Source: a virus
Lineage: Duplodnaviria; Heunggongvirae; Uroviricota; Caudoviricetes
IMG/VR virus record: IMGVR_UViG_3300028895_001083
Length of the DNA stretch: 64,000 nucleotides
Reading direction: 5' to 3' (one strand)
Shown here: positions 3,638-36,676 of the stretch, piece by piece
How the letters are laid out: each line of letters opens with the position of its first letter
Position numbering within the stretch: position 1 is the first letter of the stretch
Program-made: the position numbers and the translations under genes
The notes under the pieces: model-generated
Database searches by the model: none
What the model saw: the letters and a program-made list of their open reading frames with translations, nothing else
What the model was told of the DNA's origin: nothing

Positions 3638-3644
3638 GGAAAAC

Positions 3645-3914: not shown

Positions 3915-3923
3915 GAGTGCCCT

Positions 3924-4067: not shown

Positions 4068-4195
4068 ACGATGTATATTCCGAAGTGGGACGACGCATGT
4101 TCTGCAGGTAATTCTCCGTTTACGCTGCTAGTCTACGTTTTCGGCGACTGGGCGTGCTTGTCACCCTGGCACAGGCCGAATATCTATCCGAGGGT

Positions 4196-5944: not shown

Positions 5945-6454
5945 ATGAACAGACGAGACATGCTGAAGACATCGGCCGCTGCCGTTGCGGCCACCGGGAT
6001 GCTCCCGCGCGCGGAAGCCAAACCCACACCGACGGGCGACAAACAGATCATCGAACATTACGCCGCGACGATCTATGCGATCCCAGTCGTGGCCGCCCGG
6101 CGTGTTCTGGGCCTCTACCGCGGTGACTACAGCCTGTCCGTGTTGAAGGACGGCCAGCTGCTCGGCAATGCCAGGATAGTCGTTGCAACCGAAGAGGACA
6201 TCGACCGGTTCTTCAAGCCCGTGGCCGTCGGAGACGGTTTTACTCCGCGGATGGTAGCGAAGATACCGTCGGTGCGCTTCGGTGACGATCTCACTCTTAG
6301 AGACTTCTGGGTCTATACCGATCCGCCGGAGCCGGCCGACGGCTTCGTGAACCGTGAGGGTGCTGGCAAACTGATCGGCCTGCCGTACGCAACCTACGGC
6401 GGACGCCTCTGGAGAATGAAAGGACGTAAGCTCTATGAAATTCGGGACTCTTAG
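5945..6454 (+). CDS. Tat-signal secreted protein
   Basis: N-terminus MNRRDMLKTSAAAVAATGMLPRAEA is a twin-arginine signal peptide with an AxA cleavage site. GGGAGGG SD. Confidence 0.65.
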   Translation: MNRRDMLKTSAAAVAATGMLPRAEAKPTPTGDKQIIEHYAATIYAIPVVAARRVLGLYRGDYSLSVLKDGQLLGNARIVVATEEDIDRFFKPVAVGDGFTPRMVAKIPSVRFGDDLTLRDFWVYTDPPEPADGFVNREGAGKLIGLPYATYGGRLWRMKGRKLYEIRDS

Positions 6455-7436: not shown

Positions 7437-7666
7437 CCATGGGAAACCGACGACGCAAAACCGGCGGCAAACGCCGGAAAAGTGTACGTTGCACCCTGTG
7501 CACCGACGTTCGGTGGCTGGGCAACGCCTCGGGTAGATTCAAACGCAAAGACGAACTCGAGATGCGCGACCGAGGGCGCTTGGAGGAGTTCGAGAAGGAG
7601 AAAGACGATGGCCAAACTACTGGGCCAGGGGGTGAACACCCTCAAGAAGATGAAGAACGACTGTGA
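7433..7666 (+). CDS. Small basic protein (CxxC-containing)
   Basis: ATG overlaps the upstream stop (TGAccATG). R/K-rich with CTLCTD. It overlaps the next gene by about 58 nt. Confidence 0.35.
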   Translation: MTMGNRRRKTGGKRRKSVRCTLCTDVRWLGNASGRFKRKDELEMRDRGRLEEFEKEKDDGQTTGPGGEHPQEDEERL

Positions 7667-8393
7667 AAAAGTCGTGACCAAGCAGTACCAGTTGCTGCAG
7701 GTCTCGCAGTCCTTCGGTGGGTATGACAAGTCGTACACGCCGCTGGACGAAGACGGTCGTCAGCTGCCCAGCGAGGGGCAGACGATCAAGCAGGACCCGC
7801 GCGATCTCGTCGCCCGCGTCGAGAAAGAGTGGACCGCACTTTTCGACATGATGGCGGGCTGCGACAAGACGAACTGCACGGCCGCAGCGGACATCGTGGT
7901 CCGCGACGAAGCCGGCGACCCGTTCGTCATCGCCGAGCGCGTGCCCGTCACGACGCTGATGCCGCTGCAGAAGAAAGCAGACGACATCCTCACACTCATC
8001 CGCCACATCCCGACGCTCTCGATGAGCCGTACGTGGACGTGGGACGACAACGCAAACTGCTACGTGTCGGATGAGGAGTTCACGGACAAGACCGAAAAGG
8101 TGCACCGCCACCAGATCGTCGTCGAGCCCACCGAATTCCACCCGGCGCAGACGCATACGTACACCGAGGACCGCCCGATCGGTACCTGGCGAACGGTTTG
8201 GACCACGTCCTGCCGTCCGGCAGCCGAAGTGGCGGCCATGGAGGCGCGCGCCATTGCATTCAAATACGCAATCGGCGAAGCTGTGCAGAAGGCCAACACG
8301 GCCGAAATGCAAGAGAGAAAGATCGCCAAGCCGATCTTTGATTGGATCCTTCGGGGAGTGAAGCCTGCAGCCCAACAGCCCAGCGAGGCATAG
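7608..8393 (+). CDS. Hypothetical protein
   Basis: ATG with a GGAGAA SD; 262 aa. The antisense ORF was rejected. Confidence 0.6.
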   Translation: MAKLLGQGVNTLKKMKNDCEKVVTKQYQLLQVSQSFGGYDKSYTPLDEDGRQLPSEGQTIKQDPRDLVARVEKEWTALFDMMAGCDKTNCTAAADIVVRDEAGDPFVIAERVPVTTLMPLQKKADDILTLIRHIPTLSMSRTWTWDDNANCYVSDEEFTDKTEKVHRHQIVVEPTEFHPAQTHTYTEDRPIGTWRTVWTTSCRPAAEVAAMEARAIAFKYAIGEAVQKANTAEMQERKIAKPIFDWILRGVKPAAQQPSEA

Positions 8394-10681: not shown

Positions 10682-12565
10682 TTACTCGAGCAGCTCGTCA
10701 TCCCACTCACCATCCGTAAGCGGCACCGATGCCCGCAGTTGTTCGTCGGTGATCGCGTAGGAGGCGAGCTCGTCGAGTCGTGGCCACCGCTTGGTGCGGT
10801 ACCACACCGCCACGCAGCCCAAATTGACAGCCTGGGCGAAGTCGTCAGTGAATCCTTCCTGCCGGGTGATCCGGTAGATCTCACCGGCGGCCATCGTGGT
10901 GATTTTGTCTTCGGTCAAGGCCAGAAAGTCCCGGATCAGGCCCGGATCCTCTTGGGAGTTGTAGTCCTTGTCGAAGAAACGGAGCTTCTGGCACTTGATC
11001 ATCGCACACGTCAGCAAGAGCGTTCGGCTCTTGTCGACACGGTAGTGGCTACGCGGATGCTGCATCGTAGGAGCAACGTGGTAGCAGGGCTGCTGGTTAG
11101 CGGAGCGGACGTACTGACAGGGCATCACTTTGCGAGTCGGAATGCCCGCTTGAATCAGGAACGTCTCCCGCAGAGAGCCGGCACCAGTGTAGTCGTGTGC
11201 GAGAATCTCGGGCTTGAAGATATCCCAGTAGTGTTTGACCTCTTTGGCTTCGCGCAGGTGGTCGTGGGGTGTAAGGAGCCGCTTGCCCCACAGTACGTCG
11301 ATCGAGCCATCGTGCTTCACACCAAGGAGAGCGATCGTCGTAAAGCTGATCTTCTTTTCACCGCCCCCTCCCCAGTCAACGCCCAGCACGCGAAATTTGT
11401 ATTGCCCGCAGCGACCACGGGCACGTGCAACTGTGTTGGGCCCGAGGTCAGACACCCGGTCAATTTCAGTCAGCGTAACGAGTTTGGCGGCCGTGTCGTA
11501 AGACTCGCCGAGAACCTCGTTCCAAAACACGTTCGCAGGCGTGTTGCCTTTGCCCGCCATCTTGGCGAGGAGTTCAGCCCACTTGTCAGGCTTGGCATAG
11601 TGCAAAGGCATGATCACCTGTGGAACATGGTATCCCGCCTGTAGCCATACCCGGTCGGGATGCCGGTGTACCCAGCGCCCCAGTCGGGGACTAATCGGCT
11701 TGCCGCAATGATAACAAATCGTCGCCGGGCACTTCTCGCTGATGTCGGTGTGATACTCGCCGATCATCTTCTCGAGATGGAACTCCATGGACGGTATGTT
11801 CCAGCGCGGCTTGCCGTTCTGGGTACAATGAAAACAGGGAATAAACCACTCGGCCTGGCTGGACTCGGTCCACAGGGCCTCTAGAGTGTTGTCCAACGTC
11901 TTCGGCGTGCCGGTGAACTGCCGGATCGCCCAGTCGGATGCCGACATCGTTTCGCGGATGATCGGGATATGTTCATGGTTCATATCCTGGACCTCGTCGA
12001 TGGCCACTTTGTCCGCGGAAATACCCCGGACACGGTCAGCGTTGAGGAATGCGAACGAAAAGAGCATTTTGGAGTCGTTACGGAAGGAGCGGTGCAGCAC
12101 GCTGTTCACGGTGGTCGTGTCCGACCACAAGAACTTCACCGGACTTTGGTCGATGAAGGGCTGGACGAACATCGTGCTGAAGCGCCGAACCTGCTCGAAC
12201 AGCGGCATCACGTAGAGTGTGCTGAAGTTCGGGATGGAGGTGGATGTGATTACCCCGTGGGCAGCGAGCGATGTGCTCTTGCTCACCTGCCGCCCCGTCT
12301 TGTAGACTATGGCGGACGGCATACGGAATCTGAAGATCTCTTCAAAGGGGAAGTGGTTCGCCAAGGTGTACGGCTTACCCTTGAGATTGAGGAGCAGCAT
12401 GAGCCCGTTGGCAAGTGAGTCCAACCGGCCCGACTGCAACAGCTGCGTGAAGAGCCTGACTCTTTCGTTAGCTGACAACTCCTCGATATTCTGGGGACTG
12501 AATGCGGCCCTCATCCGCATCTGCAGTCGTGCCAGTGCTTCAGGTTCTTGAAAGGGTACATCCAT
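10682..12565 (-). CDS. Terminase large subunit (GpA-like)
   Basis: 627 aa. Walker B-like AIDEVQD. Central CFHC...CYHCGKP zinc-finger pair and a C-terminal nuclease-sized domain match the lambda gpA-type terminase architecture. Confidence 0.8.
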   Translation of the reverse strand: MDVPFQEPEALARLQMRMRAAFSPQNIEELSANERVRLFTQLLQSGRLDSLANGLMLLLNLKGKPYTLANHFPFEEIFRFRMPSAIVYKTGRQVSKSTSLAAHGVITSTSIPNFSTLYVMPLFEQVRRFSTMFVQPFIDQSPVKFLWSDTTTVNSVLHRSFRNDSKMLFSFAFLNADRVRGISADKVAIDEVQDMNHEHIPIIRETMSASDWAIRQFTGTPKTLDNTLEALWTESSQAEWFIPCFHCTQNGKPRWNIPSMEFHLEKMIGEYHTDISEKCPATICYHCGKPISPRLGRWVHRHPDRVWLQAGYHVPQVIMPLHYAKPDKWAELLAKMAGKGNTPANVFWNEVLGESYDTAAKLVTLTEIDRVSDLGPNTVARARGRCGQYKFRVLGVDWGGGGEKKISFTTIALLGVKHDGSIDVLWGKRLLTPHDHLREAKEVKHYWDIFKPEILAHDYTGAGSLRETFLIQAGIPTRKVMPCQYVRSANQQPCYHVAPTMQHPRSHYRVDKSRTLLLTCAMIKCQKLRFFDKDYNSQEDPGLIRDFLALTEDKITTMAAGEIYRITRQEGFTDDFAQAVNLGCVAVWYRTKRWPRLDELASYAITDEQLRASVPLTDGEWDDELLE

Positions 12566-14516: not shown

Positions 14517-14958
14517 TCCCACGCTGGCGACGTATCACAAAGACCTCTACGAGGACGATACGCCGCTTGCCATCATCAAGTTCTTCGAAGCCCAGCTCAA
14601 CCGGACGCCCGACAGCGACCGCGACTGGCACGAGAACGTCCGCTACCGTGTCCATTACGGTAACACCATCACAGGGCGTTGCTGGGGCGAGTACGACGAA
14701 GGCACTGTGGCACTCAACAACGAGGAGCCACAGGGCCTGATGATGCTCGCGACGCCGTCTACGAAGGAGGGGCCGCTGGTCCTGACTGGGTCGATCGTAC
14801 GGATCGATAAGCTTGCTGGCCGCTCGGTCGAGCAGGTGTACAGACATCCCACATATCACACCCACGAGGAGGAAGCGCGCGTTGCAAAAGCGGAAGTGCA
14901 GCCTGAACGGCGGCCGCGACGCATCGTGCTCAGAGGAAATGCCGACGGAGACACGTAG
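14503..14958 (+). CDS. Hypothetical protein
   Basis: ATG overlaps the RNase H 3' end by 14 nt. Confidence 0.5.
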   Translation: MTSTDPTLATYHKDLYEDDTPLAIIKFFEAQLNRTPDSDRDWHENVRYRVHYGNTITGRCWGEYDEGTVALNNEEPQGLMMLATPSTKEGPLVLTGSIVRIDKLAGRSVEQVYRHPTYHTHEEEARVAKAEVQPERRPRRIVLRGNADGDT

Positions 14959-16759
14959 TTTCAAGATGGACCAGAGTTTGCTGGTCAGCGTGATCAAGAA
15001 GCAGGCAGGCAGCCTGTGGAAAGCCGTTGTGGAAGGCGGGCAGAACGTCATCGACGCTGCCGCCCGCAAGTGCGAGATCGATTGCACGCCACAGATGGTG
15101 CAGATTCGCGATAACGGAAAGGGGTTCCGGTCCAAGGCGGACATTGAGAACTTCTTCGAAGTCTTCGGCAAACCGCACGAAGAAAGAGAGCAGAAAGTCT
15201 TTGGACAGTACCGCATGGGCCGCGGCCAGCTGTTCGCCTTCGGGCGTAACGTCTGGCGGTCCGGCGAGTTCGAGATGATCGTCGATATTGAGGAGAACGG
15301 CCTGGATTATGAGCTACGATCTGGCCTCGAGTATCACAACGGCTGCATCGTGACAGTGGAGCTTTATCGGCCGCTGTCGCATGTCCAGCACAACGAGATC
15401 CTCGACGAGATCAAGAAGAACATCAAGTTCGTCCAGATCCCGTTCCATCTGAATGGCGACGAGAAGCAGTTCAACAAGAAGCCCGACAAGATCGCCTGGG
15501 ACCTCTCGACGGCCGAGGCGGACTTCAAGTGGCGTGACAACGGGAACCTGGAGCTGTTCAACCAGGGCATCCGTGTCTGCTCTTACCCGCGCTACCGGTA
15601 CGGCACCGGCGGCGACATCGTGTCCAAAAAGCAGCTGGACGTGAACTTCGCCCGAAACGACGTCATGGACAGCTGTGAGACGTGGCAGGCGATCAGAAAG
15701 ACCGTGCGCGACCACGTCAACGCACGGACGTTGGCCCAGCAAGAAACGGCCGGCCGGCAACGGAATACCCCGACGCGCACACGTGCCCGGGCAACCAATC
15801 GGCGGCGTCCGACGCTGACCGAGCAGGACCGCTGCCGCGTCGTGCGCGAGATGAAAGACGGGTCGTTGAACAAGCGCCAGATGAAGGCCGCCAAGGTCTT
15901 CACGATGTGGCGTAAGGAAACGCACTCGACGATCTCCGCCGTATACAAGATCGCCAAGGGGAACGTCACGTTCCTCCCAGACGAGACACCGGCGTACTCG
16001 AGCCTACCCAAATCGCTGGCGGATCACCGCCTGGCGGTCGTGCTCGATCCCGTCATGTTCAACCGCTGGGGATGGAAACCGGAGTTCCCGGAAAAGCTAG
16101 TCGAGAACATCAACGCCACGTTCGACGAGCAGTTCGGCAAGTACGCAAACGACGTCCGGCTGAAGTACGTCGATGCGGACAAGATCGTGAAGACGATGCA
16201 AGGATCGAACACGGTCATCGACGCGAACAAGATGACACGCCTCGAACGCATCGCCACGGCGACTATGAGCGCCAATATCAGCAACATCCACTGGGCAGCC
16301 TGCCGTGTCAATGTCCAGCAGAACCGCAACGCGCAGCGGCGCATTGTGGTCGGCATCGGTCCGTTCGATTCGTGGACCGACGGCCGTACGTTCATTGCGA
16401 TCAACCGCCGGGTGATTGCTGCTGTCAAGGTCGGGCCTTCCAGCTGGTGGCGCTACGCTACGCTGCTCCTGCACGAGTATCTGCACACAGATGCGACGCA
16501 GGACGCGCATATGCACAAGAAGGACTTCTACGAGGCGTACCACAATCTCGTGCAACAGCACTTCATGGGCGTCTTCTGCTGGAACTGCATGATGCGGCTG
16601 CCCGCCAATGCGCGCAGCGTGCGTCGTCGCCTGACCAGCAAGGAGTTGGCGACTGTCGATGCGGCCGAAGAGCAGCAAATCTACGCACAGAACTGGGACG
16701 ACCTGGGTGTCATGTCACACCCGGATTTGGCGCCCACTTCGCGAGAGGCAGAGGAATGA
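14939..16759 (+). CDS. GHKL-family ATPase (MutL/MORC-like Bergerat fold) with C-terminal HExxH-containing domain
   Basis: N-box EGGQNVIDAA, G1-box IRDNGKGF and G2-box FGQYRMGRGQLFAFG. A basic linker is followed by a HEYLH motif in the C-terminal third. Confidence 0.7.
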   Translation: MPTETRSFKMDQSLLVSVIKKQAGSLWKAVVEGGQNVIDAAARKCEIDCTPQMVQIRDNGKGFRSKADIENFFEVFGKPHEEREQKVFGQYRMGRGQLFAFGRNVWRSGEFEMIVDIEENGLDYELRSGLEYHNGCIVTVELYRPLSHVQHNEILDEIKKNIKFVQIPFHLNGDEKQFNKKPDKIAWDLSTAEADFKWRDNGNLELFNQGIRVCSYPRYRYGTGGDIVSKKQLDVNFARNDVMDSCETWQAIRKTVRDHVNARTLAQQETAGRQRNTPTRTRARATNRRRPTLTEQDRCRVVREMKDGSLNKRQMKAAKVFTMWRKETHSTISAVYKIAKGNVTFLPDETPAYSSLPKSLADHRLAVVLDPVMFNRWGWKPEFPEKLVENINATFDEQFGKYANDVRLKYVDADKIVKTMQGSNTVIDANKMTRLERIATATMSANISNIHWAACRVNVQQNRNAQRRIVVGIGPFDSWTDGRTFIAINRRVIAAVKVGPSSWWRYATLLLHEYLHTDATQDAHMHKKDFYEAYHNLVQQHFMGVFCWNCMMRLPANARSVRRRLTSKELATVDAAEEQQIYAQNWDDLGVMSHPDLAPTSREAEE

Positions 16760-20342: not shown

Positions 20343-20418
20343 AACAGGCGGTGCGGCGGGTTCCTTTTGGGCCCTGTTTACAGGGTTTTATCCTGCTCGT
20401 CGTGCCGCCTGTTGTTTT
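20343..20418 (+). terminator. Compound hairpin terminator between convergent genes
   Basis: Outer stem AACAGGCGG/CCGCCTGTT followed by GTTTT. Inner CCCTG-ttta-CAGGG hairpin followed by TTTT. Confidence 0.45.
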
Positions 20419-20420
20419 AA

Positions 20421-20678
20421 CTACTCCTCCACGCCGGCGGCTTTGAGAAGCTCGCCGCGGAAGCAGCTGATCGAGCAGTTGAAGCTGAGATGCTCCTTCG
20501 CCCAATCGAACAGGTCCTTCATCGAGAGACCTTGGTATTTGCCGTCGGACCAGTTCTTGACGAACTCTTCCCACAGCTCGCGTTCCTCGCCTTGGAGGAC
20601 GCGCGGGGTGACCAGACGCGGTTTCGCAGCGAGAGCGGCGAGGGCGTCCTTGTTGTTTTTCTTGGTGGCTTTGGCCAT
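20421..20678 (-). CDS. Small Lys-rich N-terminus protein, unknown function
   Basis: AGAGGAAG SD on the minus strand; 85 aa. Confidence 0.55.
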   Translation of the reverse strand: MAKATKKNNKDALAALAAKPRLVTPRVLQGEERELWEEFVKNWSDGKYQGLSMKDLFDWAKEHLSFNCSISCFRGELLKAAGVEE

Positions 20679-20680
20679 GA

Positions 20681-21259
20681 CTATTCTTCCTCTTGTTCTT
20701 CAGCAGGATACTCGTGCAACGGCATGACGGCAGTTGAACCGATCACCCGGTGCATGTTCGTCAGGTGGAAGTCGGACATGAATGCGCGCTCCACGTTGAC
20801 GCCAAACGGTTCTAAATCCTCGCGGATCTTTTTGGTGAGCGAGTTGTTGATGCTCCGGAACTTCCGGATCAACGTCTCGACGTCTTTACCGATAACGGAT
20901 TCGACGACGCCCTCTTGTGCGCGATCACGGATCGTGACGTTGAAGTCGTACGTGTGGGCCAGCGCCTTGACGATGTCGTCGATTGTGAAAACCACTGTCA
21001 CTGATATTGTCAGTCCGATAGCTTCTTTGGTATCATGCGGCAGTGTTTGAGCTTCAAGATTGATCGTGTCACGGATAACGGGATGGACCACCGGTCGTTG
21101 GATGGGTGGCCAGTAGAGATGAAAGCCAGGGCCAATGGCCTTCACTCTGCCGAGCGTGAACATGACTCCCATCTGGGTCCTGTCGACGTGGAGCCCACGA
21201 GGGAAGATCCGAGATGCCCAACGCAGGAGGTCGCTCAGCCATCCAAGACCGATGTCCAT
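20681..21259 (-). CDS. SPFH/Band-7 domain protein
   Basis: Core GVMFTLGRVKAIGPGFHLYWPPIQ...IRDTINLEAQTLP matches the prohibitin/stomatin-like fold signature. Confidence 0.6.
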   Translation of the reverse strand: MDIGLGWLSDLLRWASRIFPRGLHVDRTQMGVMFTLGRVKAIGPGFHLYWPPIQRPVVHPVIRDTINLEAQTLPHDTKEAIGLTISVTVVFTIDDIVKALAHTYDFNVTIRDRAQEGVVESVIGKDVETLIRKFRSINNSLTKKIREDLEPFGVNVERAFMSDFHLTNMHRVIGSTAVMPLHEYPAEEQEEE

Positions 21260-21260
21260 A

Positions 21261-21752
21261 TTACCCGTTCCGTATGCCAAGAGACTTCGAGAGTCTTTCC
21301 AATTTCCCGTAGAACTCGTCGAGCGTCCCGTAGTTCGGGATGACGATGTCTGCAACGTCTAGATCCATCTCGAGCGACGGATCGTTGGGGACGGCACGGC
21401 TGACCCAGACGATCAGGTCAAGCATGTCCCGTTCTAGCAATGCTTGCAGTTCTCCCGCCCGTCGGATTCCGTTGAGAATATCGCTGTCCTTCAGCATATC
21501 CTCGTACAGCGTGATCCCAAAGGGCTGATTGTACTCCCAGATCGCGTTTGCCCACCGTACCCGGTGATTATGGCGATCTTCCCAGCATTCCCGGACGGTT
21601 TTGTACCCCAGGGTCTTGCCGAATCGCTCAAAAATCATGGGTGCGGCAGCTTCGCTAGTACTGCCAGCATCTGTCAGAATCGTGTTCTCGGTGAGCCATT
21701 GCATGGCGGTGTCTTTGCCGCAGCGCCCTGGCCCACAAATGGCGATTTTCAT
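21261..21752 (-). CDS. P-loop nucleotide kinase (dNMP kinase-like)
   Basis: N-terminal Walker A MKIAICGPGRCGKDT. 163 aa, the size class of phage deoxynucleotide monophosphate kinases. Confidence 0.55.
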   Translation of the reverse strand: MKIAICGPGRCGKDTAMQWLTENTILTDAGSTSEAAAPMIFERFGKTLGYKTVRECWEDRHNHRVRWANAIWEYNQPFGITLYEDMLKDSDILNGIRRAGELQALLERDMLDLIVWVSRAVPNDPSLEMDLDVADIVIPNYGTLDEFYGKLERLSKSLGIRNG

Positions 21753-22066
21753 GAGTCGTTGTAAACCTTCTTCCCAGTGGCATCGATACGAAACGTCCGC
21801 GGATGGGCGCCGTAGAGCAGCATGGCGCGGCAGGCGATCGCTGCAACCTTACGCAGCGCCCGCAACGTCTTCTCTTCGTCGGCACCGTGCACCCAGGCCT
21901 CCTCGGCCTTGCGCATGTAGACCCGCAACGTAGTAAGCTGTCCCACGACACCGTGGTCCAGGCCGTCGCTGCGGTCGGTATCAGCGAATGAGTTTTGGTA
22001 CTCAAGTTCGCTGTTGATAGCGTCGATCACGTCCTGCGAGAGCGCAGGATTCTCAATGGTCATCAT
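21749..22066 (-). CDS. Hypothetical protein (possible MazG-like NTP pyrophosphohydrolase; weak)
   Basis: 105 aa acidic helical protein with EE..E pattern; the assignment is tentative. Confidence 0.4.
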   Translation of the reverse strand: MMTIENPALSQDVIDAINSELEYQNSFADTDRSDGLDHGVVGQLTTLRVYMRKAEEAWVHGADEEKTLRALRKVAAIACRAMLLYGAHPRTFRIDATGKKVYNDS

Positions 22067-22632
22067 TCTTCGAGCAGTCCTTCGTATTGTTCAATCACAC
22101 AGTCCATCGGGTCGTCTCGACGTAGACGGAACCGATTCCAGCTTTTAGGGAAGACGATCTGCCGACCGCCACGCTCCCGGAACTTGGGTTCGTAGCCCTC
22201 GGAGTCATCGATGAGCAGGGCACCAGGGCGGGCCACGCTCTCCTTGCGTCCGGTGAAGATCACGTCGCTGTCGTCGATCTCCTGGCCGTAGACGCGTCGT
22301 AGCCATGTGAGCTTGCCTCGCACGGCGTAGCCAGAGTCAGCACCGCCGAACTCTGGTTTGCAGATATTCCGGGTCAGGAACGTCACTGGCCCGATCTGGC
22401 GGCAGAAATGAAACAACTCTACCGCCCACGGTAGTACCTCGAGTTCGTCCCAGAAGTAGTGCTTCTGATCCACGATCGGTGTCCAGATCTCCGAGTCGGT
22501 CTTGCCGAGTACCGCCACGTCGTGCGTCTCAAGCGTGCCGATCAGGTCTGAACGCCCGTGAAGGCGCAGCACTGCCGGTAGGAAGTCCGCGAGGACATCG
22601 TCAACATCTAGGTAGACTTCGTCGAAACGCAT
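22063..22632 (-). CDS. 5'(3')-deoxyribonucleotidase (HAD superfamily)
   Basis: LDVDDVLADF is the DxDxV phospho-aspartate motif of NT5C-type nucleotidases; 189 aa. Confidence 0.7.
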   Translation of the reverse strand: MRFDEVYLDVDDVLADFLPAVLRLHGRSDLIGTLETHDVAVLGKTDSEIWTPIVDQKHYFWDELEVLPWAVELFHFCRQIGPVTFLTRNICKPEFGGADSGYAVRGKLTWLRRVYGQEIDDSDVIFTGRKESVARPGALLIDDSEGYEPKFRERGGRQIVFPKSWNRFRLRRDDPMDCVIEQYEGLLEE

Positions 22633-23792
22633 CAGCTCTTCGTGGGCTTGTCATCACAGAAAATTGGCATGGACATCGTCATGCCGTGTTCGTAGTCTAT
22701 AACTATGAACGTCTGCGTGGGCGGCTGGGCTTTGAATCCGCCGCGTTTGGCGTACGGACTGATGCCGATCAGGCAGCCACACAGGACATAGTTCCAGTCA
22801 CAGCCGTACTGGTGGAAGTGCCCCATCACGTCGAGCTCAGCGGGCGTCGCCGGCGGCTCGTTCCACTGCGCGATCTTCCGGCGCAGAGGCACGTGGACAC
22901 CACCGATCCCGCCGCCGTACTTGATGGCGTGGCCGTGGTGGAATCGAACAGTGTGCCCTTGAACGGGCAAAATGTTGTGATACCCAGGCTCCAGTTTGCA
23001 CTGGACCTTGTCGTCGTCGCGGAAGAAATTGGCGACGTTGTTGTAGATCAACCACTCCCAAGAACTGCGGGGCTCAGTGGCGATGCGGCGATCCTTGGTG
23101 GAGCGCCCGTGATTGCCCAAGCTGGTCGTGAACAACACGTGGTCAGCTTTGGATTCCCGCTTAAGGAGGTCGATACCCTGGATCAGGTGGTTTTGCACTT
23201 CGATCGAGGCTTCGGCCGGGCCCTTACGGTTGCCCTCCATGAGCTCTTCATGGATGTAACCAGTGATCATGTCACCGCCGGCCCATAAGACGACTTCGTT
23301 GATATTCGCAATCGAGCGAGCGAAGTCGAGAAGGTAGAGCGACTTTTGCCAGGTAGTAGCAATGCGCCGATTAGCAACACGCTCGTTGAACTCGTTGACC
23401 CCGTTAACCATTTTCGGGTCGACGACCTCTTCAAGGTGCCAATCGTTGACACAGATGATGGCGGACGCTTTGCCGCGTCCCTTGCGTTTACGACTCCGCT
23501 CCAGCTTTCGGAGCGTCGCCTGGTCCTGCGAGGCCAGGAGCCTTTCGCAGTTGTCCTCGGAGACCTGCAAGTCCGCCTCGGCCTGCTTGTACTTCTTCTC
23601 CGCGTCCTTTTTGGCCGCGTTGGCAGAAGCGAGCTTCCGTTCGAGTTTGCGGATTTCGCGGATCTTCTCGTCCTCGCTCATGTCAGCGAGGGTTTGCAGC
23701 TGCGCAAGCTTTTCGCGTGCTTCAGCCGTCTTCGAGCTAGCCATTGATTGTCCTCGTGTTGAAGATGCATCTGTTACGACTTGCGATATCAT
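22632..23792 (-). CDS. Calcineurin-like metallophosphoesterase with N-terminal coiled coil
   Basis: Motifs VNDWH (DxH), GDMI (GD), GNHG and GHFHQ (GHxH); N-terminal K/E/A-rich coiled coil. Confidence 0.65.
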   Translation of the reverse strand: MISQVVTDASSTRGQSMASSKTAEAREKLAQLQTLADMSEDEKIREIRKLERKLASANAAKKDAEKKYKQAEADLQVSEDNCERLLASQDQATLRKLERSRKRKGRGKASAIICVNDWHLEEVVDPKMVNGVNEFNERVANRRIATTWQKSLYLLDFARSIANINEVVLWAGGDMITGYIHEELMEGNRKGPAEASIEVQNHLIQGIDLLKRESKADHVLFTTSLGNHGRSTKDRRIATEPRSSWEWLIYNNVANFFRDDDKVQCKLEPGYHNILPVQGHTVRFHHGHAIKYGGGIGGVHVPLRRKIAQWNEPPATPAELDVMGHFHQYGCDWNYVLCGCLIGISPYAKRGGFKAQPPTQTFIVIDYEHGMTMSMPIFCDDKPTKS

Positions 23793-23854
23793 GTGAGTCT
23801 ACCAGATCTGTCGATCGTGTGTCAAGTGTCTTACCTGAAAAAATCTGACAATTT

Positions 23855-23871
23855 TGCTTGCAATGCAAGCA
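23855..23871 (+). promoter_or_regulatory. Inverted repeat TGCTTGCA-a-TGCAAGCA in divergent promoter region
   Basis: Perfect 8-bp arms between the minus-strand block and the plus-strand gene at 23890. An adjacent TGACA is -35-like. Confidence 0.35.
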
Positions 23872-23889: not shown

Positions 23890-24225
23890 ATGCACCATAT
23901 TCCAGTGGATCATTGTCCGGACGTGGAGTTGACGAAACTCCCGAACGAGAAGGTGGTCACATTCGACGGGCATGAGTTGAAGCTGGGGTCAGTCATCTAC
24001 TTTCGCTTCTGTCCGCGCGAGGCGGCGTCCGAATACGTCGTAGTCTCAGATCGCGCGATTCGTGGCAGAGGCACTACAAAAATAATGGTGGTAGGCAGCC
24101 GTGGCATCGCAGCGGCTATGGACGCCACCGAATTCGTTAGAGACAAAAAGATTTGGTGGGACTGGTACCAGCAGAGGTACAAGCCCGCCGGGAGACGAAC
24201 CAATGGCGAAACAGCCAGAGACTGA
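23890..24225 (+). CDS. Hypothetical protein
   Basis: AAGGAGAG SD. Confidence 0.55.
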   Translation: MHHIPVDHCPDVELTKLPNEKVVTFDGHELKLGSVIYFRFCPREAASEYVVVSDRAIRGRGTTKIMVVGSRGIAAAMDATEFVRDKKIWWDWYQQRYKPAGRRTNGETARD

Positions 24226-24838
24226 TCTCGTTCCCACTGACCTCGTCACTGTCACCATGGATATGGACAAGGACGACGTCGCGGCCATTTTGATGTCCCG
24301 CGCTGAAGAGCGCATCAAGCTGGCCATTAAAGCTTGTCAGGACCGTGAAAAGGTTCTGACGAAGGAGCACGACGAGCTGCGCGAAGCCTTCAACGACCTC
24401 TGCGAAGAGTTCGCAAAGGAGAAGATGGAGGACACCGTCGAGACCCTCACCGAAGCGGCCACTGCGCTGAAGTGCAAGAATATCAGCACGGAAGTGTACT
24501 CGGGCGGATTCACGCTCCACAACAACATGGTCGCGGCAAGCATGAGCCTCAACGCCCAAAAGCCGCGTGTGCGCTGGGAGGTGAGTACGTCCTTCAAGGC
24601 CACGGCTGCGCTGAAGAAGGCCTACCAGACCGGCGAGAAGAAGCGCAAGGAGATCGACGACAACAAGAAGCAGTGGATCGAATGGCGGCGCAAGCTGGCC
24701 GATCTGCCGTCGATGGAACGCCGTGCCAAGGCGGCCGTCGCCGAGTCCCGGCTCAAGTCCACGAAAGAGGGCCAAAAGCTGGTCGACATGCTCAACGGCG
24801 ATCTCGACAACTCCGTGAAGCTGCTCGGCATCTGTTGA
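24203..24838 (+). CDS. Hypothetical helical protein
   Basis: GGGAGA SD; overlaps the upstream gene by 23 nt. Confidence 0.5.
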   Translation: MAKQPETDLVPTDLVTVTMDMDKDDVAAILMSRAEERIKLAIKACQDREKVLTKEHDELREAFNDLCEEFAKEKMEDTVETLTEAATALKCKNISTEVYSGGFTLHNNMVAASMSLNAQKPRVRWEVSTSFKATAALKKAYQTGEKKRKEIDDNKKQWIEWRRKLADLPSMERRAKAAVAESRLKSTKEGQKLVDMLNGDLDNSVKLLGIC

Positions 24839-24845
24839 TATTGCA

Positions 24846-25991
24846 ATGCCTGCCAGTGGTGATCTAAAACTGCTTGGATTCTGGCGACAGCCGGACGCCA
24901 CGCGGTGGAAACCATTTTCTGAAGATCAAGAGAGCGTAACGCTCAACGCGCCGATCGATGACGTGGTGTTTGGCGAGACTCGGGAAGATTGTCTTGCCCA
25001 GATTCACGCCAAATACCCGGCATCGGATCCCAATATGTCGCTCGTGGAGTATCGCTGGCAAACGCATCCGCGTCACCAGTCAATCAGCGGCGACCCGTCT
25101 ACGAATTGGGATAAGGACGACTCCATCGACGTGAGCGAGACGGAGCGCTACTGCGGAGCCGATCCGTGGGAAGCTCTTGCGCTTGCTAAGAAACTCGGCA
25201 CGATTGAAACTCGCAATCTGACTACGGAAGGCTACTGCTACGACGGGCCGAAGTGGGAGGAGGAGGGTTGTATTGTGACGAGTGTCGGTTGGTACACCGG
25301 CATTAAGAAGATCAAGTATGATCCCAAAGGCCTGCTACGTGCGAAGAAAGCCGCAGCGACACGCCAAAAGACGGGGGCCGTCCTCGTTAGCGACGTGGCT
25401 TCGGCGATCTGGCAGCTTGCGATGCAACTCAACGATGTTGTACGCATCCGCGGCGTCGGCAGCGATTGGAATAGCCGCTACTCCTGCTGCATCTGCGCAT
25501 TAGAGACGATCAAGTGGTTCAACGCCGTCTTCGGCAAGAACGCACATCGTCGCAACAAGCACTTCCGCGAACTCAAAAAGAAGTGGAAGGAGCGTGCAGA
25601 GGCGTCGCGCAAAGCGTGGTATCGTGACGCGCAGGTCGAATACAATGACAACGATCCGCGGGCCGTCTTCGCCAACTTCATGGCCGAAGAGATCAAGGTC
25701 CGTAACTCGCCCGTACTGACCGAAAAGGAGTGGCGAAAACGCGGCGAACGTTGGAAGCCCCCGCCGGGCACGTTCAAGGCGTTCGGCCACAAAGCCTATG
25801 CCAAACAAAGGGCGCGCGACGAAAAAGCGCAAGCCAAAAAAGAAGCCGAAGCCAAAAAAGCCGCCGCCAAAAAGAAAGCCAAAGTCGGTGGCAAAAAAGG
25901 CAAAGGCAACGCCAAAGCCAAAAGGCCGACCAAAAAGAAAGCCCCCGCAAAGAAGCGGCCGTCCCGACGTAAGTCCAAAGCTGCGCGCTGA
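24846..25991 (+). CDS. Protein with histone H1-like Lys/Ala-rich C-terminal tail
   Basis: The C-terminal ~70 aa are AKKEAEAKKAAAKKKAKVGGKKGKGNAKAKRPTKKKAPAKKRPSRRKSKAAR. Confidence 0.55.
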   Translation: MPASGDLKLLGFWRQPDATRWKPFSEDQESVTLNAPIDDVVFGETREDCLAQIHAKYPASDPNMSLVEYRWQTHPRHQSISGDPSTNWDKDDSIDVSETERYCGADPWEALALAKKLGTIETRNLTTEGYCYDGPKWEEEGCIVTSVGWYTGIKKIKYDPKGLLRAKKAAATRQKTGAVLVSDVASAIWQLAMQLNDVVRIRGVGSDWNSRYSCCICALETIKWFNAVFGKNAHRRNKHFRELKKKWKERAEASRKAWYRDAQVEYNDNDPRAVFANFMAEEIKVRNSPVLTEKEWRKRGERWKPPPGTFKAFGHKAYAKQRARDEKAQAKKEAEAKKAAAKKKAKVGGKKGKGNAKAKRPTKKKAPAKKRPSRRKSKAAR

Positions 25992-26016: not shown

Positions 26017-26244
26017 ATGAAGGAGGCCAAAAACTTCAAGGCGGCATTCAAACGTCCCTTACACGACTTCTGGATCAACAATGTACGCGGCTTCGACATC
26101 CAGCGCTTCTGCGACGAGATGCTCGAGGCGTGCCACGGGAGTTTGGTCAAAGCCGTGCGTGCTGAATACGGGGACGAAAAGGCGGCATTAATCAAACGAC
26201 TGGTGCCTAGTGGTTCCAGCGTCATGTGGCCACAAGCCACATAA
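26017..26244 (+). CDS. Hypothetical protein (75 aa)
   Basis: First ATG after the upstream stop, in the frame that carries the coding-like C-terminal segment ...FDIQRFCDEMLEACHGSLVKAVRAEYG. Confidence 0.4.
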   Translation: MKEAKNFKAAFKRPLHDFWINNVRGFDIQRFCDEMLEACHGSLVKAVRAEYGDEKAALIKRLVPSGSSVMWPQAT

Positions 26245-27094
26245 CTTCTGAAGACCAGGCTGCTCCCAGGTGTGTGCGACACCACCGTCGCAGTGCGTCA
26301 CCGTCACGGCCCTCTGAGAACTTCCGATAGTACGCTATCGGGTCCATAAAGAGCTGACTGACGGGTTTTGCCTCGGCAAATAGTGTCATCATCCTGGACC
26401 AATTGAACGCGAAGGCATGGCGCAGCTGGGTGTCGTTGTAGGACACGCGGCCCGCCTGAATCTCTTGTTGTACATGACAGACAATCGCCAGTGCGTTGAT
26501 TGCTGACTCTGCTGTGAAAAGCAGGTCGCCAGCACCGTCGCCGATGGAACCACCATTCTTCGCCATCCACACGTTATGCGTCGCGCCGTTCAGGTAAGCG
26601 ACCCACTCGTCTAGGATGTAGAGGGGGATCTGATTCCATTGGCGAGTTCTGCCGATCATGTACTGCGCGTACATTCGCGATCTGAGTCCGGTTGGGACAT
26701 ACCGGGCAGCATCCCTGATAGTGCAGGGCCGCGGCTCTTCGATGAGCGCGGTCCTGCCGTTCAAACAATAGAGTGCGTTTTCCACACCCGTGCCGGCACC
26801 ATGCTCGTTCCTCATGAGCGAGTTCACACCATGGGTCGCTTCATGCGCCCACGTGCCCAGATCTGAGTCACGGTAAGTCGCGGAGCTTGTCAGGCCCGTT
26901 GCGGGCAGCCGCGAATCAATGTCCGCCAATACCTGCCCCAACCGTGTGTCGTCTACCGCTCTGACAACCGGCGCGTAGGTCCACAGCGGTTCACGGGCAG
27001 CCTCATTGGAGCGATCGTCGCCGGCAGCGTACATTGGTCCCGCCAGTACGCTGCCGGCTGACGCCGCTATGAATGCCCGTCGTGATAGTTTCAT
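26222..27094 (-). CDS. Tat-signal secreted protein with HExxH (HEATH) zincin-like motif
   Basis: MKLSRRAFIAASAGSVLAG is a twin-arginine signal. WAHEATHGVNSLMRNEH...VEN is compatible with a gluzincin HExxH+E arrangement. Confidence 0.55.
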   Translation of the reverse strand: MKLSRRAFIAASAGSVLAGPMYAAGDDRSNEAAREPLWTYAPVVRAVDDTRLGQVLADIDSRLPATGLTSSATYRDSDLGTWAHEATHGVNSLMRNEHGAGTGVENALYCLNGRTALIEEPRPCTIRDAARYVPTGLRSRMYAQYMIGRTRQWNQIPLYILDEWVAYLNGATHNVWMAKNGGSIGDGAGDLLFTAESAINALAIVCHVQQEIQAGRVSYNDTQLRHAFAFNWSRMMTLFAEAKPVSQLFMDPIAYYRKFSEGRDGDALRRWCRTHLGAAWSSEVMWLVAT

Positions 27095-27144
27095 GGCGTC
27101 AAATATACCGTTCTTTCGGGATCCGGGGAGGACCAATTTTGTTA

Positions 27145-27915
27145 ATGGAAACAAAATGTGCGCATGCGCAGCAGGACTGGGCGACAGCCTTACTGCAGCG
27201 ACACGGCAAACTGATGGAAGTCGAGGAGATGGAGGCCCTCATTAAGAGGGGTAAGGCAGGGGACGACGACGCGCGGAACCGCGGGATTGCTGGTTGCTAC
27301 AGGCTGGCCTTTCAACAGGCCTGGCGCGCAGCGTACAACGATCCCCACTTCTCCGTCGACGATCTCTTCCAGGAGGCCGTGATCGGCCTCATGAAGGCAG
27401 TCGAGCGCTGGCGACCAGAAACGGGCAACCGATTCGTAACCGCTGCTTGGTTCTCGATCCATGCCGCAATCTCATGGTACAAAAAGTGCCATAGGCGCCT
27501 CGTATACTACCCGCCCCGCTGGGACGAAAAGGGTGTCAAGCGGCCGGACTGGACTAAAGACTGTCCGGAGCTGTTTGCAGACTACGTGTCGTTGCATAAA
27601 CGCGTGGGCACGGGCAATAGGCGAAATCCCGGGATATTCGTGTACGAGATGATTGAAGACGAGACGCTGCGCGACTTCGTTGCCGACGTCGAGAGCGAGG
27701 ACCAAGCCGATATGGTCTACGAGGCGTTCGAGAAGTTGACGGAGCGTGAAGTCGACATACTGCGGCGTCGCTATCTCGGCGACAAGCTTTGGGAGATCGG
27801 TAAAGTTTACGGAATCACCCGCGAACGTGTTCGGCAGTTGATCATCAAAGCCGAAAATATCATCCACAATCACGTCTTGAAAGAGCAAATCGATGGAGAC
27901 GCTGGTACTGCTTAA
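27145..27915 (+). CDS. Sigma-70 family sigma factor (phage-encoded)
   Basis: Region 2-like FQEAVIGLMKAVERW...FVTAAWFSIHAAISWY. Region 4 HTH EVDILRRRYLGDKLWEIGKVYGITRERVRQLIIKAE. Confidence 0.75.
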   Translation: METKCAHAQQDWATALLQRHGKLMEVEEMEALIKRGKAGDDDARNRGIAGCYRLAFQQAWRAAYNDPHFSVDDLFQEAVIGLMKAVERWRPETGNRFVTAAWFSIHAAISWYKKCHRRLVYYPPRWDEKGVKRPDWTKDCPELFADYVSLHKRVGTGNRRNPGIFVYEMIEDETLRDFVADVESEDQADMVYEAFEKLTEREVDILRRRYLGDKLWEIGKVYGITRERVRQLIIKAENIIHNHVLKEQIDGDAGTA

Positions 27916-28318
27916 ACCCGATACGCTCAAACGGGGCCTGGTGGGGCGCGTCCTCACCAGGCTCGAGGATCGGGGCATCCGCTTCCTGCGGGTGAAAGAG
28001 TTGATCATGCTCCCCCGCCACTGCGAGGAGTTGTACGCAAAATTCAAGGGCGAGCCCTACCTGCCTCGCATCCAAGAATTTATGACCAGCGGCCCGATCG
28101 AGGCCCGTGTGGCGCACGCGCCGCACGCGCCCGACGACACGATCACGATCGTACGGTCTGCTGTTGGCAGCTTCACGGCACCCGCTGCAGGCACCATCCG
28201 TGGTGACTTCGGCGCTGTCCGCGAAAAGAACCTGATACACGCCAGCGACTCGCCAAGTGCGGCCAAAGTCGAAATCGAGATATTCTTCCCGGGGTTCCCT
28301 GGAGATGTCGGCGACTAG
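27893..28318 (+). CDS. ndk: Nucleoside diphosphate kinase
   Basis: LVLLKPD, RGLVG, EFMTSGPIEARV, GTIRGDFG and NLIHASDS match the NDK signature including the active-site His region. ATGA coupling to the sigma gene. Confidence 0.85.
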   Translation: METLVLLKPDTLKRGLVGRVLTRLEDRGIRFLRVKELIMLPRHCEELYAKFKGEPYLPRIQEFMTSGPIEARVAHAPHAPDDTITIVRSAVGSFTAPAAGTIRGDFGAVREKNLIHASDSPSAAKVEIEIFFPGFPGDVGD

Positions 28319-35164: not shown

Positions 35165-36676
35165 ATGACAAATTCGACGGAAGAGCTGGCCTCTGACGAT
35201 TACGTCGTCGTCATTGGTCCCGTCATTGTCGATCGCTACTTCGTGGGCAAACCCAGACGACTTGACCGTACGGCGCCGGTGCCTCTAATCGGCGTCACGG
35301 GACAGTTCTGGGCGCCCGGTGGCGGCGGCAATGCCGCAAACTGCTTGGCCCATCTGGCCCTCCCAACGACGTTCGTCGGCATGGTCGGAGACGACGACGC
35401 CGGCGAAGAGTATCTCAAGGCACCGATGCCTCCCAACCTGCAGCTGAAGGTTGGCAAATACGCTAACTACAGCACCCCCGTAAAAACCCGCGTCTATGCC
35501 AACAATCGCCTTGTAGCACGGTTTGACGCGGACGATCCTTACACAGGGTCGTTCGAGTCTACGACTGCGTCCTTATTTTTTAGCGCTGTGGCAGAGAAGC
35601 CGCCTTTGGCGATACTTATCAGCGACTACAACAAGGGGGTGTGCACGCCCGACATCATCGGGTCCGTGCTGCTCTACGGCGAGGATCACAACGTCCCCGT
35701 GATCGTGGACCCTGATCCGGCGCACACAGAGAGCTATCAGGGCGCTACGCTACTCACGCCGAACGCCGACGAGGCAATGCGGATGGCAGCGGCCTGCGGG
35801 TATGCAGATCGCGCAACCGATCCGGTCGAAGCAGCTGACTTCCTGGCCAACAAGTTCGATTGTGACGTCCTCGTCACGCTCGGCAGCCACGGAATGGTGC
35901 TGGTTCCGCCCCACGGGCAGGAACGGTTCCCGCTGCAAGCGCTGCCCGCCGCTGCGATCGATACGTGCGGTTGCGGAGATGCTGTGGCGTCGGCGATGAC
36001 CTACGGGATTGCCACCGGAATGAACGCACGCACGGCTACGCGCTTTGCAAACGTGTCCGGTTCGCTATGCTGCGAGATCATTGGTGCTATGCCCATCCCG
36101 CTGCACCGCCTCAACCAACGCGTGACGCTGTCGCTCGGGCTCGATCGAAAGGTCGTGACCCTCGACGAGCTGCGTCTCCTGCGGCAATCCGTCGCCGTCG
36201 CCGGCGAAATCTTCGGGGTTGCCAACGGCGTGTTCGACGGCGTCCACGACGGGCACACCTCGCTGCTACGGCAGGCCAGGGAGCATTGTGACTTCCTGGC
36301 GGTGCTCGTGAACACTGACGAATCGGCGGAGCGCATCAAGCGCCGACCGCAACACAGTCAGATAGCCCGTTCGCTCAGCCTGGCGGCGCATCCGTTGGTG
36401 GATGCGGTGCTGCTGTTCGACGGCGATAACGCAGTACCAGAGTATCAGGCGTTGCAGCCCGATATCATGGTAAAAGGGCCGGACTACAAGGATAGGGAAG
36501 ACCTGCTACCGGAAGCTGCGGTGCTGCCTGAATGGGGCGGCGAGCTGCGGTTGGCCGAGCTAGAGGTCGACGTCAGTAGTACCCAACTGCGGGAAGAAGA
36601 TGAGGCCCTCAAAGAGAGCACTGCGCCAGGAGAGACTGAAGACAGCGCTGGAGGAGCTGGAGACGCTGCGGACTGA
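35165..36676 (+). CDS. Bifunctional sugar kinase / nucleotidyltransferase (HldE/RfaE-like)
   Basis: N-terminal ribokinase/pfkB motifs GGGGNAANCLAHLA and DTCGCGDAVASA. C-terminal cytidylyl/adenylyl-transferase motif GVFDGVHDGH (the (H/T)xGH family). Confidence 0.7.
   Translation: MTNSTEELASDDYVVVIGPVIVDRYFVGKPRRLDRTAPVPLIGVTGQFWAPGGGGNAANCLAHLALPTTFVGMVGDDDAGEEYLKAPMPPNLQLKVGKYANYSTPVKTRVYANNRLVARFDADDPYTGSFESTTASLFFSAVAEKPPLAILISDYNKGVCTPDIIGSVLLYGEDHNVPVIVDPDPAHTESYQGATLLTPNADEAMRMAAACGYADRATDPVEAADFLANKFDCDVLVTLGSHGMVLVPPHGQERFPLQALPAAAIDTCGCGDAVASAMTYGIATGMNARTATRFANVSGSLCCEIIGAMPIPLHRLNQRVTLSLGLDRKVVTLDELRLLRQSVAVAGEIFGVANGVFDGVHDGHTSLLRQAREHCDFLAVLVNTDESAERIKRRPQHSQIARSLSLAAHPLVDAVLLFDGDNAVPEYQALQPDIMVKGPDYKDREDLLPEAAVLPEWGGELRLAELEVDVSSTQLREEDEALKESTAPGETEDSAGGAGDAAD

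Follow-up and report, generated by a model that had tools for sequence, protein, structure and literature searches.

A block of six genes encoded on the minus strand at positions 20421-23792 of a 64,000-nucleotide stretch of viral DNA (Caudoviricetes; IMG/VR record IMGVR_UViG_3300028895_001083; this whole stretch is called the window hereafter) is a real and conserved operon of a large uncultured phage. In the order of transcription the genes are designated F, E, D, C, B, and A, and they encode a putative nuclease of the metallophosphoesterase (MPE) type, a predicted 5'(3')-deoxyribonucleotidase, a small helical protein, a P-loop kinase, an SPFH-domain protein, and a small protein with a lysine-rich N-terminus. 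The gene structure, the assignment of families and folds, the intact catalytic motifs, the synteny among related phages and the conservation of a promoter motif have been established directly. The explanation favored here, although its probability is placed somewhat short of even, is that this separately promoted operon, probably expressed early, would process DNA and deoxyribonucleoside monophosphates (dNMPs). Only the link to an SPFH protein is new, the enzymes being similar to known phage modules that deal with host DNA and nucleotide pools. The analysis covered the window plus about 4 kb upstream, the full genome being 220 kb or more in length.

The six open reading frames (ORFs) fill the interval 20421-23792, and the rest of the window is nearly all coded on the plus strand. 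Packing within the block is tight, with neighboring genes either overlapping by 1-4 nt or separated by 1-2 nt; all six carry the high G+C content at third codon positions that marks the real genes of the window, and independent gene callers have given the same six genes on public contigs of identical sequence. An initial annotation of the window, made by a model from the letters and their ORFs, had placed all six correctly except for two starts. The start of F is most likely the ATG at 23744 (M17 of the ORF as first read), which the gene callers also use to give a protein of 370 amino acids, and which is spaced by 6 nt from a GAGGA ribosome-binding site on its 5' side; the ATG at 23792 is disfavored because the -10 box of the promoter ends at 23796, which would leave a near-leaderless mRNA. 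The start of B is the ATG at 21259 (192 amino acids), 1 nt past the stop codon of C, and not the TTG at 21355. The block is indeed the sole multi-gene minus-strand block of the window, as had been stated; besides it there are three lone minus-strand genes, namely one of 108 amino acids at about 272-598 according to the gene callers (a longer ORF reaches 670), the terminase gene at 10682-12565 and one of about 290 amino acids within 26222-27154. The word island, by which the block had been called, is misleading, since its position is identical in all relatives and its composition shows no anomaly beyond the inversion of strand, the skews alone being opposite in sign to those of the flanks; conserved position and normal composition rule out a foreign island.

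The genes F-E-C-B-A, in the same order and in the same inverted orientation, have been found in seven related lineages (five from IMG/VR and two from further assemblies), an arrangement far beyond chance. The initial annotation had proposed synteny in related phages as something to look for, and these seven lineages provide it. Identities to the proteins of the window are 55-71% for B, 52-71% for C, 41-62% for F, about 50% for A, and 33-67% for E. In the relatives, the block sits between the side of the NAD-dependent ligase and homologues of the plus-strand genes located at 23890-25991 of the window. At the nucleotide level the DNA of the block had no match among cultured phages; the clade consists of large uncultured phages from hypersaline and aquatic metagenomes. 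Because F has matches in Planctomycetota and the G+C content is 58%, a planctomycete host is suggested.

The operon possesses a promoter of its own. A sigma-70-type element lies on the minus strand at 23796-23825 and consists of TTGACA, an 18-nt spacer, and a TG-extended -10 box, TAGACT (TGGTAGACT); in a consensus scan it matched 10 of 12 positions in addition to the TG extension. The extended -10 stands at the same spot 5' of F in five relatives whose surrounding sequence has diverged, and this conservation supports, on phylogenetic grounds, its assignment as a sigma-70-type promoter. The variants seen across the window and the relatives are TGGTAGACT, TGGTAGGAT, TGTTATACT, and GGTTAGTAT; the window has the exact 9-mer a single time, with no further copies beyond chance. 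Directly 3' of the -10 box, a GATATC is present as a single copy in the window (about 23785-23790) and in tandem, GATATCnnTGATATC, in the relatives L058 (about 4745-4765) and L060 (about 4735-4755), with only a partial ATATCG in L062; this motif may be an operator or an element of the start site. On the other side of the divergent intergenic region, the repeat search recovered the perfect 8-bp inverted repeat that had been described there, TGCTTGCA-A-TGCAAGCA, at 23855-23871 (arms at 23855-23862 and 23864-23871). It lies just 5' of the ribosome-binding site of the plus-strand gene at 23890-24225, and a 6-bp counterpart (GCTTGC-AAG-GCAAGC) is present at the corresponding position of L057, the closest relative, but is not evident in more distant ones; the repeat might act as an operator or form a hairpin in the 5' untranslated region.

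At the other end, the compound terminator said to bound the block exists as a structure, but it serves chiefly the converging plus-strand genes. Minimum free energy folding and z-scores place a hairpin followed by a U-tract on the plus strand at 20343-20420, between the converging genes; the hairpin itself (20343-20414) reaches -53.3 kcal/mol with z = -5.15, and is then followed by UUGUUUUAA. On the operon strand the same region folds more weakly (z = -2.15) and has no U-tract. The 20343-20420 element is therefore mainly a terminator of the plus-strand genes, and for the minus strand the weak fold and the missing U-tract rule out a bidirectional one. A comparable hairpin with a U-tract is not evident in the regions folded 3' of A in five relatives, several of which run into the converging gene.

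The first gene of the operon, F (22632-23744, minus strand), encodes a metallophosphoesterase of 370 amino acids with a long N-terminal helix or coiled coil, which is a putative exonuclease similar to DP1, Mre11, and SbcD. The protein matches PHROG 284, labeled exonuclease, with E = 7e-37; a Pfam scan of F gave no match, and neither single-sequence nor profile searches of the PDB found a relative of solved structure. Nevertheless, the motifs of the MPE family are intact. In fact, D101-x-H103, G157-D158, G210-N211-H212, and H270 are invariant in alignments of 29 and 35 homologues, and in the fifth motif H311 is invariant, H309 being invariant in one alignment and present in at least 90% of the sequences in the other. 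The structural model (predicted local distance difference test, pLDDT, 88.5) has a long helix at residues 24-71 followed by the MPE domain, so that the description of F as a coiled-coil metallophosphoesterase holds. The nucleases PolD DP1, SbcD, and Mre11 are structurally nearest to the model, and from it we conclude that F is probably a nuclease-type MPE, a putative exonuclease. Unlike DP1, Mre11, and SbcD, with which it has no similarity at the sequence level, F lacks an OB domain and the large subunit of PolD, and has an N-terminal coiled coil of its own; neither a Rad50/SbcC ATPase nor a PolD DP2 partner is adjacent to F in the operon.

The genomic surroundings of the F family point in the same direction. 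The family comprises 560 homologues, some of which bear a Fis-type HTH_8 domain, and in 37 viral loci the neighbors are replication and nucleotide genes. For example, a group of phages of about 50 kb carries helicase, prim-pol, RusA, F, and a dATP/dGTP-diphosphohydrolase-type gene (PF18909), mostly followed by an NT5C gene; in these loci (L006-L016 and L049), where F, PF18909, and NT5C make up a recurrent nucleotide module of three genes, the genes that come after the F homologue are located at about +1000 to +2000. In a second group, a class II ribonucleotide reductase (RNR) precedes F and a PD-(D/E)XK nuclease comes after it. Another example is a prophage in a metagenome-assembled genome of Pirellulaceae (L073), where F is accompanied by PF18909 (9189-9527) only, NT5C being absent, and which also has a LexA-like repressor and serine recombinases; the 191-aa gene that follows the dGTP_diPhyd_N gene in this prophage was considered as an NT5C candidate and is not NT5C. 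That F and NT5C are again adjacent in unrelated phages speaks for the exonuclease-type protein and the nucleotidase being linked in function.

The nucleotidase of the present operon is E (22063-22632, minus strand), a protein of 189 amino acids of the NT5C family of HAD 5'(3')-deoxyribonucleotidases. It scores 28.9 bits against Pfam NT5C (PF06941; cut-off 24.8) and 5e-15 against PHROG 2643, and a profile built from 10 homologues matches the human cytosolic and mitochondrial enzymes cdN and mdN over the full length at 9e-13 to 1e-11. Residues D9, D11, V13, K130, and D142-D143 are invariant among these homologues and correspond to the HAD motifs; all HAD catalytic motifs are common to E and the two human enzymes, although identity with them is about 25-30% at best. 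These matches mark E as a genuine NT5C-family 5'(3')-deoxyribonucleotidase by prediction. Characterized members of the NT5C family prefer substrates of the dUMP/dTMP type.

Protein C (21261-21752, minus strand; 163 amino acids) is a P-loop kinase with the fold of nucleoside monophosphate (NMP) kinases. It matches the dNMP kinases of PHROG 139 over residues 1-151 (1.4e-7); a single-sequence search of the PDB yielded nothing useful. The AlphaFold2 model has a pLDDT of 95.9, and in Foldseek an adenylate-kinase-related protein of Sulfolobus, the T4 dNMP kinase (1dek), and phosphomevalonate kinase scored alike, the T4 enzyme being the second-best match with a probability of 1.00 and a template modeling score of only about 0.55. 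Within the P-loop, three residues are invariant (G7, G12, and K13), and two more, D14 and T15, occur in at least 90% of the sequences. C and T4 gp1 (1dek; PHROG 139) have in common the P-loop GxxxxGKDT, the NMP-kinase fold, and the context of phage nucleotide metabolism. The pairing of a dNMP-kinase-like protein and a 5'(3')-deoxyribonucleotidase in one operon, as initially annotated, is supported.

The C family also occurs in cultured phages, and its members in roseophages and Rhodobacter phages, which are 27-35% identical to C over the full length, lie in clusters for dTMP synthesis. In the N4-like roseophage RD-1410W1-01, the C-family domain forms the N-terminal part of gp31, a 508-aa protein annotated as thymidylate synthase, the remainder of which is ThyX (2989-4515 of locus L064). 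In RcRudolph gp46 (2392-3516 of L065) and RDJL Phi 2 gp15 (2512-3558 of L066), a PRA-PH/MazG-like N-terminus is joined to a C-family C-terminus, and ThyX, dCMP deaminase, and dihydrofolate reductase (DHFR) genes follow. The GenBank labels 'thymidylate synthase', 'MazG-like pyrophosphohydrolase', and 'Cof hydrolase' conceal the C-family domain in gp31, gp46, and gp15. In Shewanella phage KASIA, a relative of C comes after RNR and an NTP pyrophosphohydrolase, and dUTPase is also among the neighbors of the family. These fusions with ThyX and PRA-PH place the C family at the dUMP/dTMP node, the best call being a dNMP kinase, possibly of dTMP; C itself would be a dNMP-kinase-like protein, possibly directed to dTMP. 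In contrast to the roseophage and Rhodobacter fusions, C stands alone and is paired with NT5C and SPFH proteins instead of ThyX, dCMP deaminase, and DHFR. Two further comparisons with these loci were negative: E has no similarity to the N-terminal domain of RDJL Phi 2 gp15, which is PRA-PH and not HAD, and F has none to the metallophosphoesterase adjoining the roseophage kinase-ThyX fusion.

Downstream of the kinase, B (20681-21259, minus strand) encodes a stomatin-type SPFH-domain protein of 192 amino acids with a conserved amphipathic N-terminus. The match to Pfam Band_7 (PF01145) is clear (67.2 bits, E = 2.5e-18), and a profile of the family aligns with PH1511 and human stomatin over the SPFH domain only (E-values from 4e-6 to 3e-4); the stomatin alignment stops at residue 167 of 192, leaving a short acidic tail. 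The initial annotation described B as a membrane scaffold, for which the sequence gives no support: there is no transmembrane segment (no 19-residue hydrophobic window was found outside the domain core) and no C-terminal coiled coil. For the first 18 residues the hydrophobic moment is 0.58, a value reached by 0.35% of shuffled sequences; the strongly amphipathic helix at this end contains D and R and could bind the membrane peripherally. No partner of the NfeD type accompanies B, the downstream protein A having neither a Pfam, NCBIfam, or PDB match nor a hydrophobic segment. Therefore, B shares the SPFH domain with PH1511, human stomatin, and E. coli QmcA but differs from them in having no anchor, coiled coil, NfeD partner, or lipoprotein signal.

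The same domain is common to B and the SPFH proteins of phages (PHROG 200; 44RR, Aeh1, RB43; Vi01-like gp200). Genes of this kind had been recorded before, in T4-like and Vi01-like phages among others (PMC1524935, PMC10892097, PMC8540360), and in two decades of such records they have been given no role (PMC1524935, PMC13239085). To call an SPFH gene unusual in this kind of module was nevertheless fair, as the searches placed the B family in this clade and this operon alone. In fact, the family forms 25 clusters, all of about 190 amino acids and all metagenomic, in a collection of 5.8 billion proteins, and in IMG/VR it is found at seven loci on six contigs, all of this phage clade and all in this operon. 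A tblastn search of 50,697 cultured-phage records found no B at 1e-5 and only noise at E up to 5, and none turned up in 185,579 species-representative genomes either. Within the operon, B is the most conserved protein (55-71% identity).

Proteins A and D correspond to the lysine-rich and the acidic small proteins that had been noticed initially (11.8% Lys and pI 5.5, respectively). The first, of 85 amino acids with a Lys-rich N-terminus (20421-20678, minus strand), is constantly the last gene of the operon, and every relative has it, with an identity of about 50%; residues T24, L28, G30, W36, G50, W59, C68-S69, and F73-R74 are invariant, and searches of Pfam, PHROG, NCBIfam, and PADLOC and a profile search of the PDB gave no match. 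On their arrangement, B and A are predicted to be obligatorily co-transcribed members of the operon. The second, D (21749-22066, minus strand), is a mildly acidic helical protein of 105 amino acids and an accessory member, being present only in the window and in the closest relative (81% identity). Its family comprises 180 representative clusters of helical proteins of about 90 amino acids, some of them tandemly duplicated or within proteins of more than 400 amino acids, with the consensus E-L-x-Y-Q...D-H-G-V-x-G-Q-L...K-A-x-x-A-W...R-K-x-A-A-I-A. No Pfam, PADLOC, or NCBIfam assignment was obtained, and a PDB profile search matched only a designed repeat protein; the possibility that D is a pyrophosphohydrolase similar to MazG/PRA-PH or to dGTP_diPhyd_N was negative by hhalign, with both thin and rich profiles, and in Pfam scans of 45 family members.

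A useful comparison for this set of genes is provided by phage T5, which encodes a dNMP kinase, dnk, and has canonical DNA. The following T5 proteins are of interest. A1, a predicted metallophosphatase, is necessary and sufficient for degradation of the host chromosome, and Dmp dephosphorylates the resulting dNMPs (bioRxiv 10.64898/2026.04.02.716235); the same co-oriented pre-early set also includes A2, which is small and binds DNA, and a small protein of the membrane (bioRxiv 10.64898/2026.04.02.716235; NC_005859). A1 and Dmp are like the operon described here in that a DNA-degrading protein of the MPE type and a dNMP phosphatase are combined in one co-oriented early set that is read by the host RNA polymerase, the corresponding features of the operon being predicted ones. 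On the other hand, the T5 kinase lies outside the A1/Dmp operon, and T5 has no SPFH protein; the presence of kinase C within the operon suggests reuse of the products, in contrast to excretion in the T5 system. Homology was rejected for both pairs, hhalign giving a probability of 0.1% for F with A1 and of 4.8% for E with Dmp. The resemblance to T5 is one of apparent functional analogy, not of homology.

In the mechanism that we propose, the host RNA polymerase would read the operon early, as is suggested by its own sigma-70-type extended -10 promoter. F would then digest DNA to dNMPs; C would rephosphorylate the wanted ones, possibly dTMP, to the diphosphates (dNDPs), which the NDK of the phage (27893-28318) could convert to dNTPs, the connection of this enzyme with the operon being a presumed one; and E would dephosphorylate the unwanted dNMPs. 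The net result would be the disposal or recycling of DNA together with a reshaping of the dNTP pool, a logic shared with A1 and Dmp of T5 and with the dNMP kinases of T4 and T5. As a guess, B might serve as a scaffold or a regulator, either oligomeric or peripheral to the membrane, and A might be a small regulatory protein. The substrates, the timing, the flow from enzyme to enzyme, and any role of B and A are all parts that we infer.

Several points weigh against this mechanism. The activity and the substrate of every protein of the block are predictions, and the early timing is read from the promoter motif. As regards F, the top Foldseek ranks are generic MPE folds, including 5'-nucleotidases, and there is no sequence-level match to a solved structure or to T5 A1. 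Moreover, members of its family are also carried by small phages and by temperate ones, where they adjoin prim-pol, helicase, and RusA genes, and in these phages a role in replication or recombination would be as likely as bulk degradation of DNA; the phage also encodes an SbcCD-like pair already. As regards C, the protein scores 15 bits against Pfam DNMK (PF21448), below the cut-off of 27.1, and falls 80 residues short of T4 gp1 in length (163 vs. 241 amino acids). Finally, B and A have no mechanistic tie to nucleotides, and their co-transcription may be a matter of timing alone.

In an alternative that we consider rather unlikely, the operon would be a co-regulated set, early or with a timing of its own, of unrelated functions that share no pathway: F would be an exonuclease for replication or recombination, or one of the proofreading type, E and C would balance nucleotide pools, and B and A would be a host-directed membrane or regulatory pair, acting for instance on an FtsH-type protease, on the membrane stress response or on superinfection. 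Consistent with it, F-family genes belong to the replication modules (helicase, prim-pol, RusA, PD-(D/E)XK) of numerous phages and of the Pirellulaceae prophage, B has a weak HflK match, and SPFH genes exist in many unrelated phages, for which no link to nucleotide metabolism is reported in PMC1524935, PMC10892097, PMC13239085, and PMC8540360. In addition, an SPFH protein without a transmembrane segment that acts in membrane stress is known, namely B. subtilis YdjI/SamI (PMC8581546). However, the order F-E-C-B-A has been kept with near-zero gaps in seven lineages while the flanks diverge, and the adjacency of F and NT5C in an unrelated phage group argues that at least F and E would be functionally linked.

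A second alternative, and a doubtful one, is close to what the initial annotation had proposed: the kinase and the nucleotidase would have complementary specificities, excluding a canonical dNMP and admitting a non-canonical one, and the DNA of the phage would be modified. There are precedents in the Bacillus phages with uracil- or hydroxymethyluracil-containing DNA (PBS2, SPO1/phi-e), which have a dTMP phosphatase together with a kinase for dUMP or hmdUMP. Agreement with this scheme comes from E, whose family prefers dUMP and dTMP; from the relatives of C that are fused to ThyX or MazG-like enzymes at the dUMP/dTMP node; from the order F, dATP/dGTP-diphosphohydrolase-type gene, NT5C found elsewhere, which resembles selective depletion of a pool; and from other genes of the window, since PolA has a domain of the uracil-DNA glycosylase (UDG) superfamily and the radical-SAM, DUF7873, and HldE-like genes could serve DNA modification. 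Against it, the window and the 4 kb upstream yielded no homologue of thymidylate synthase, hydroxymethylase, PurZ, DpdA, or DNA glycosyltransferase, although this is weak evidence because 64 kb out of at least 220 kb were examined. Furthermore, T5 has both a phosphatase and a kinase yet its DNA is canonical, which means that such a pair of enzymes needs no modified base.

A more ambitious version of the favored mechanism, which we regard as improbable, would give B and A a scaffolding role by which the exonuclease, the nucleotidase, and the kinase are joined into a membrane-proximal or caged complex, thus coupling the destruction of host DNA to the selective reuse of nucleotides or the export of nucleosides. 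If it were true, a phage SPFH protein would for the first time have a function, and nucleotide metabolism would for the first time be tied to SPFH proteins; the case would be stronger if the complex discriminated a non-canonical pyrimidine dNMP.

Less probable still is a function in counter-defense, by which the enzymes would guard the dNTP pool against defenses that deplete it, or the MPE and the nucleotidase would destroy the nucleotide second messengers of immunity. A separately promoted and probably early operon would suit such a takeover of the host; however, PADLOC models gave no meaningful match to the proteins of the block, no known anti-defense family was matched, and F is structurally nearest to DNA exonucleases, with some homologues carrying DNA-binding helix-turn-helix domains. 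Finally, there is the hardly credible reading of E as a sugar-phosphate phosphatase performing a GmhB-type step for the HldE-like enzyme encoded at 35165-36676. In its favor, the HldE-like gene lies within the window, and for RB69p051, a phage protein similar to a 'putative 5'(3')-deoxyribonucleotidase', a sugar-phosphate role, the dephosphorylation of arabinose-5-phosphate, has been put forward (PMC13326640). Against it, E matches authentic cdN and mdN over its full length, is 12.5 kb away from the HldE-like gene on the opposite strand and is invariably beside F and C.

The remaining assignable genes, which include those for NAD ligase, helicases, and a RecA-like protein, identify the window as a region of replication and nucleotide metabolism. 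The NDK gene (27893-28318, plus strand) matches NCBIfam NDK at 1.3e-31, below the equivalog cut-off, and Pfam NDK is recorded for this gene where it lies on identical contigs, and also near the block in the contig of one relative; a sigma-70-family factor with regions 2 and 4 stands just before it and overlaps it, the two together spanning 27073-28318 on the plus strand. Also on the plus strand are an SbcD/Mre11-like metallophosphoesterase (37509-38726; weak Pfam Metallophos match, below cut-off) and an SbcC/Rad50-like ATPase (40000-42144); since the SbcD-like gene is present, F would be the second nuclease-type MPE of the genome. The family A DNA polymerase PolA (48909-52094, plus strand; 1061 amino acids) bears the UDG-superfamily domain (PF03167, 1.2e-21) at its N-terminus, before the 3'-5' exonuclease and polymerase domains. 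The HldE-like heptose-7-phosphate kinase/heptose-1-phosphate adenylyltransferase (35165-36676, plus strand; NCBIfam 3.6e-72, below the equivalog cut-off, with Pfam PfkB and CTP_transf_like) suggests that the phage synthesizes a nucleotide-activated sugar. Three successive plus-strand genes encode a TAT-signal protein (5945-6454), a radical-SAM enzyme with weak similarity to MoaA, viperin, and QueE (6435-7325), and a DUF7873 protein (7482-8393; 6e-60). Other plus-strand genes encode a GHKL-type ATPase (HATPase_c_3; 14813-16759) upstream of the ligase and conserved in the relatives, and, near the RecA-like gene, a protein with a Pfam DUF1016_N match (56649-57776), which we take to be of the YhcG-like nuclease type. 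The gpA-type large terminase (10682-12565, minus strand) stands by itself among plus-strand genes of the replication region, at a distance from any recognizable structural gene of the window.

Taken one by one, the enzymes of this operon are otherwise the usual content of phage nucleotide metabolism. Their family relationships have consequences for annotation: the PHROG 284 'exonuclease' family appears to be a DP1-like metallophosphoesterase that is missed by Pfam and is recurrently tied to NT5C and dATP/dGTP-diphosphohydrolase-type genes, and the short kinase family of C, a hidden domain in roseophage proteins labeled otherwise, represents a gain in annotation. For SPFH proteins, the operon gives a phage gene of this type a testable functional context. 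If the operon works as proposed, a strategy of the T5 type would have arisen independently in a jumbo-phage clade, with non-homologous proteins and with the addition of a salvage kinase.

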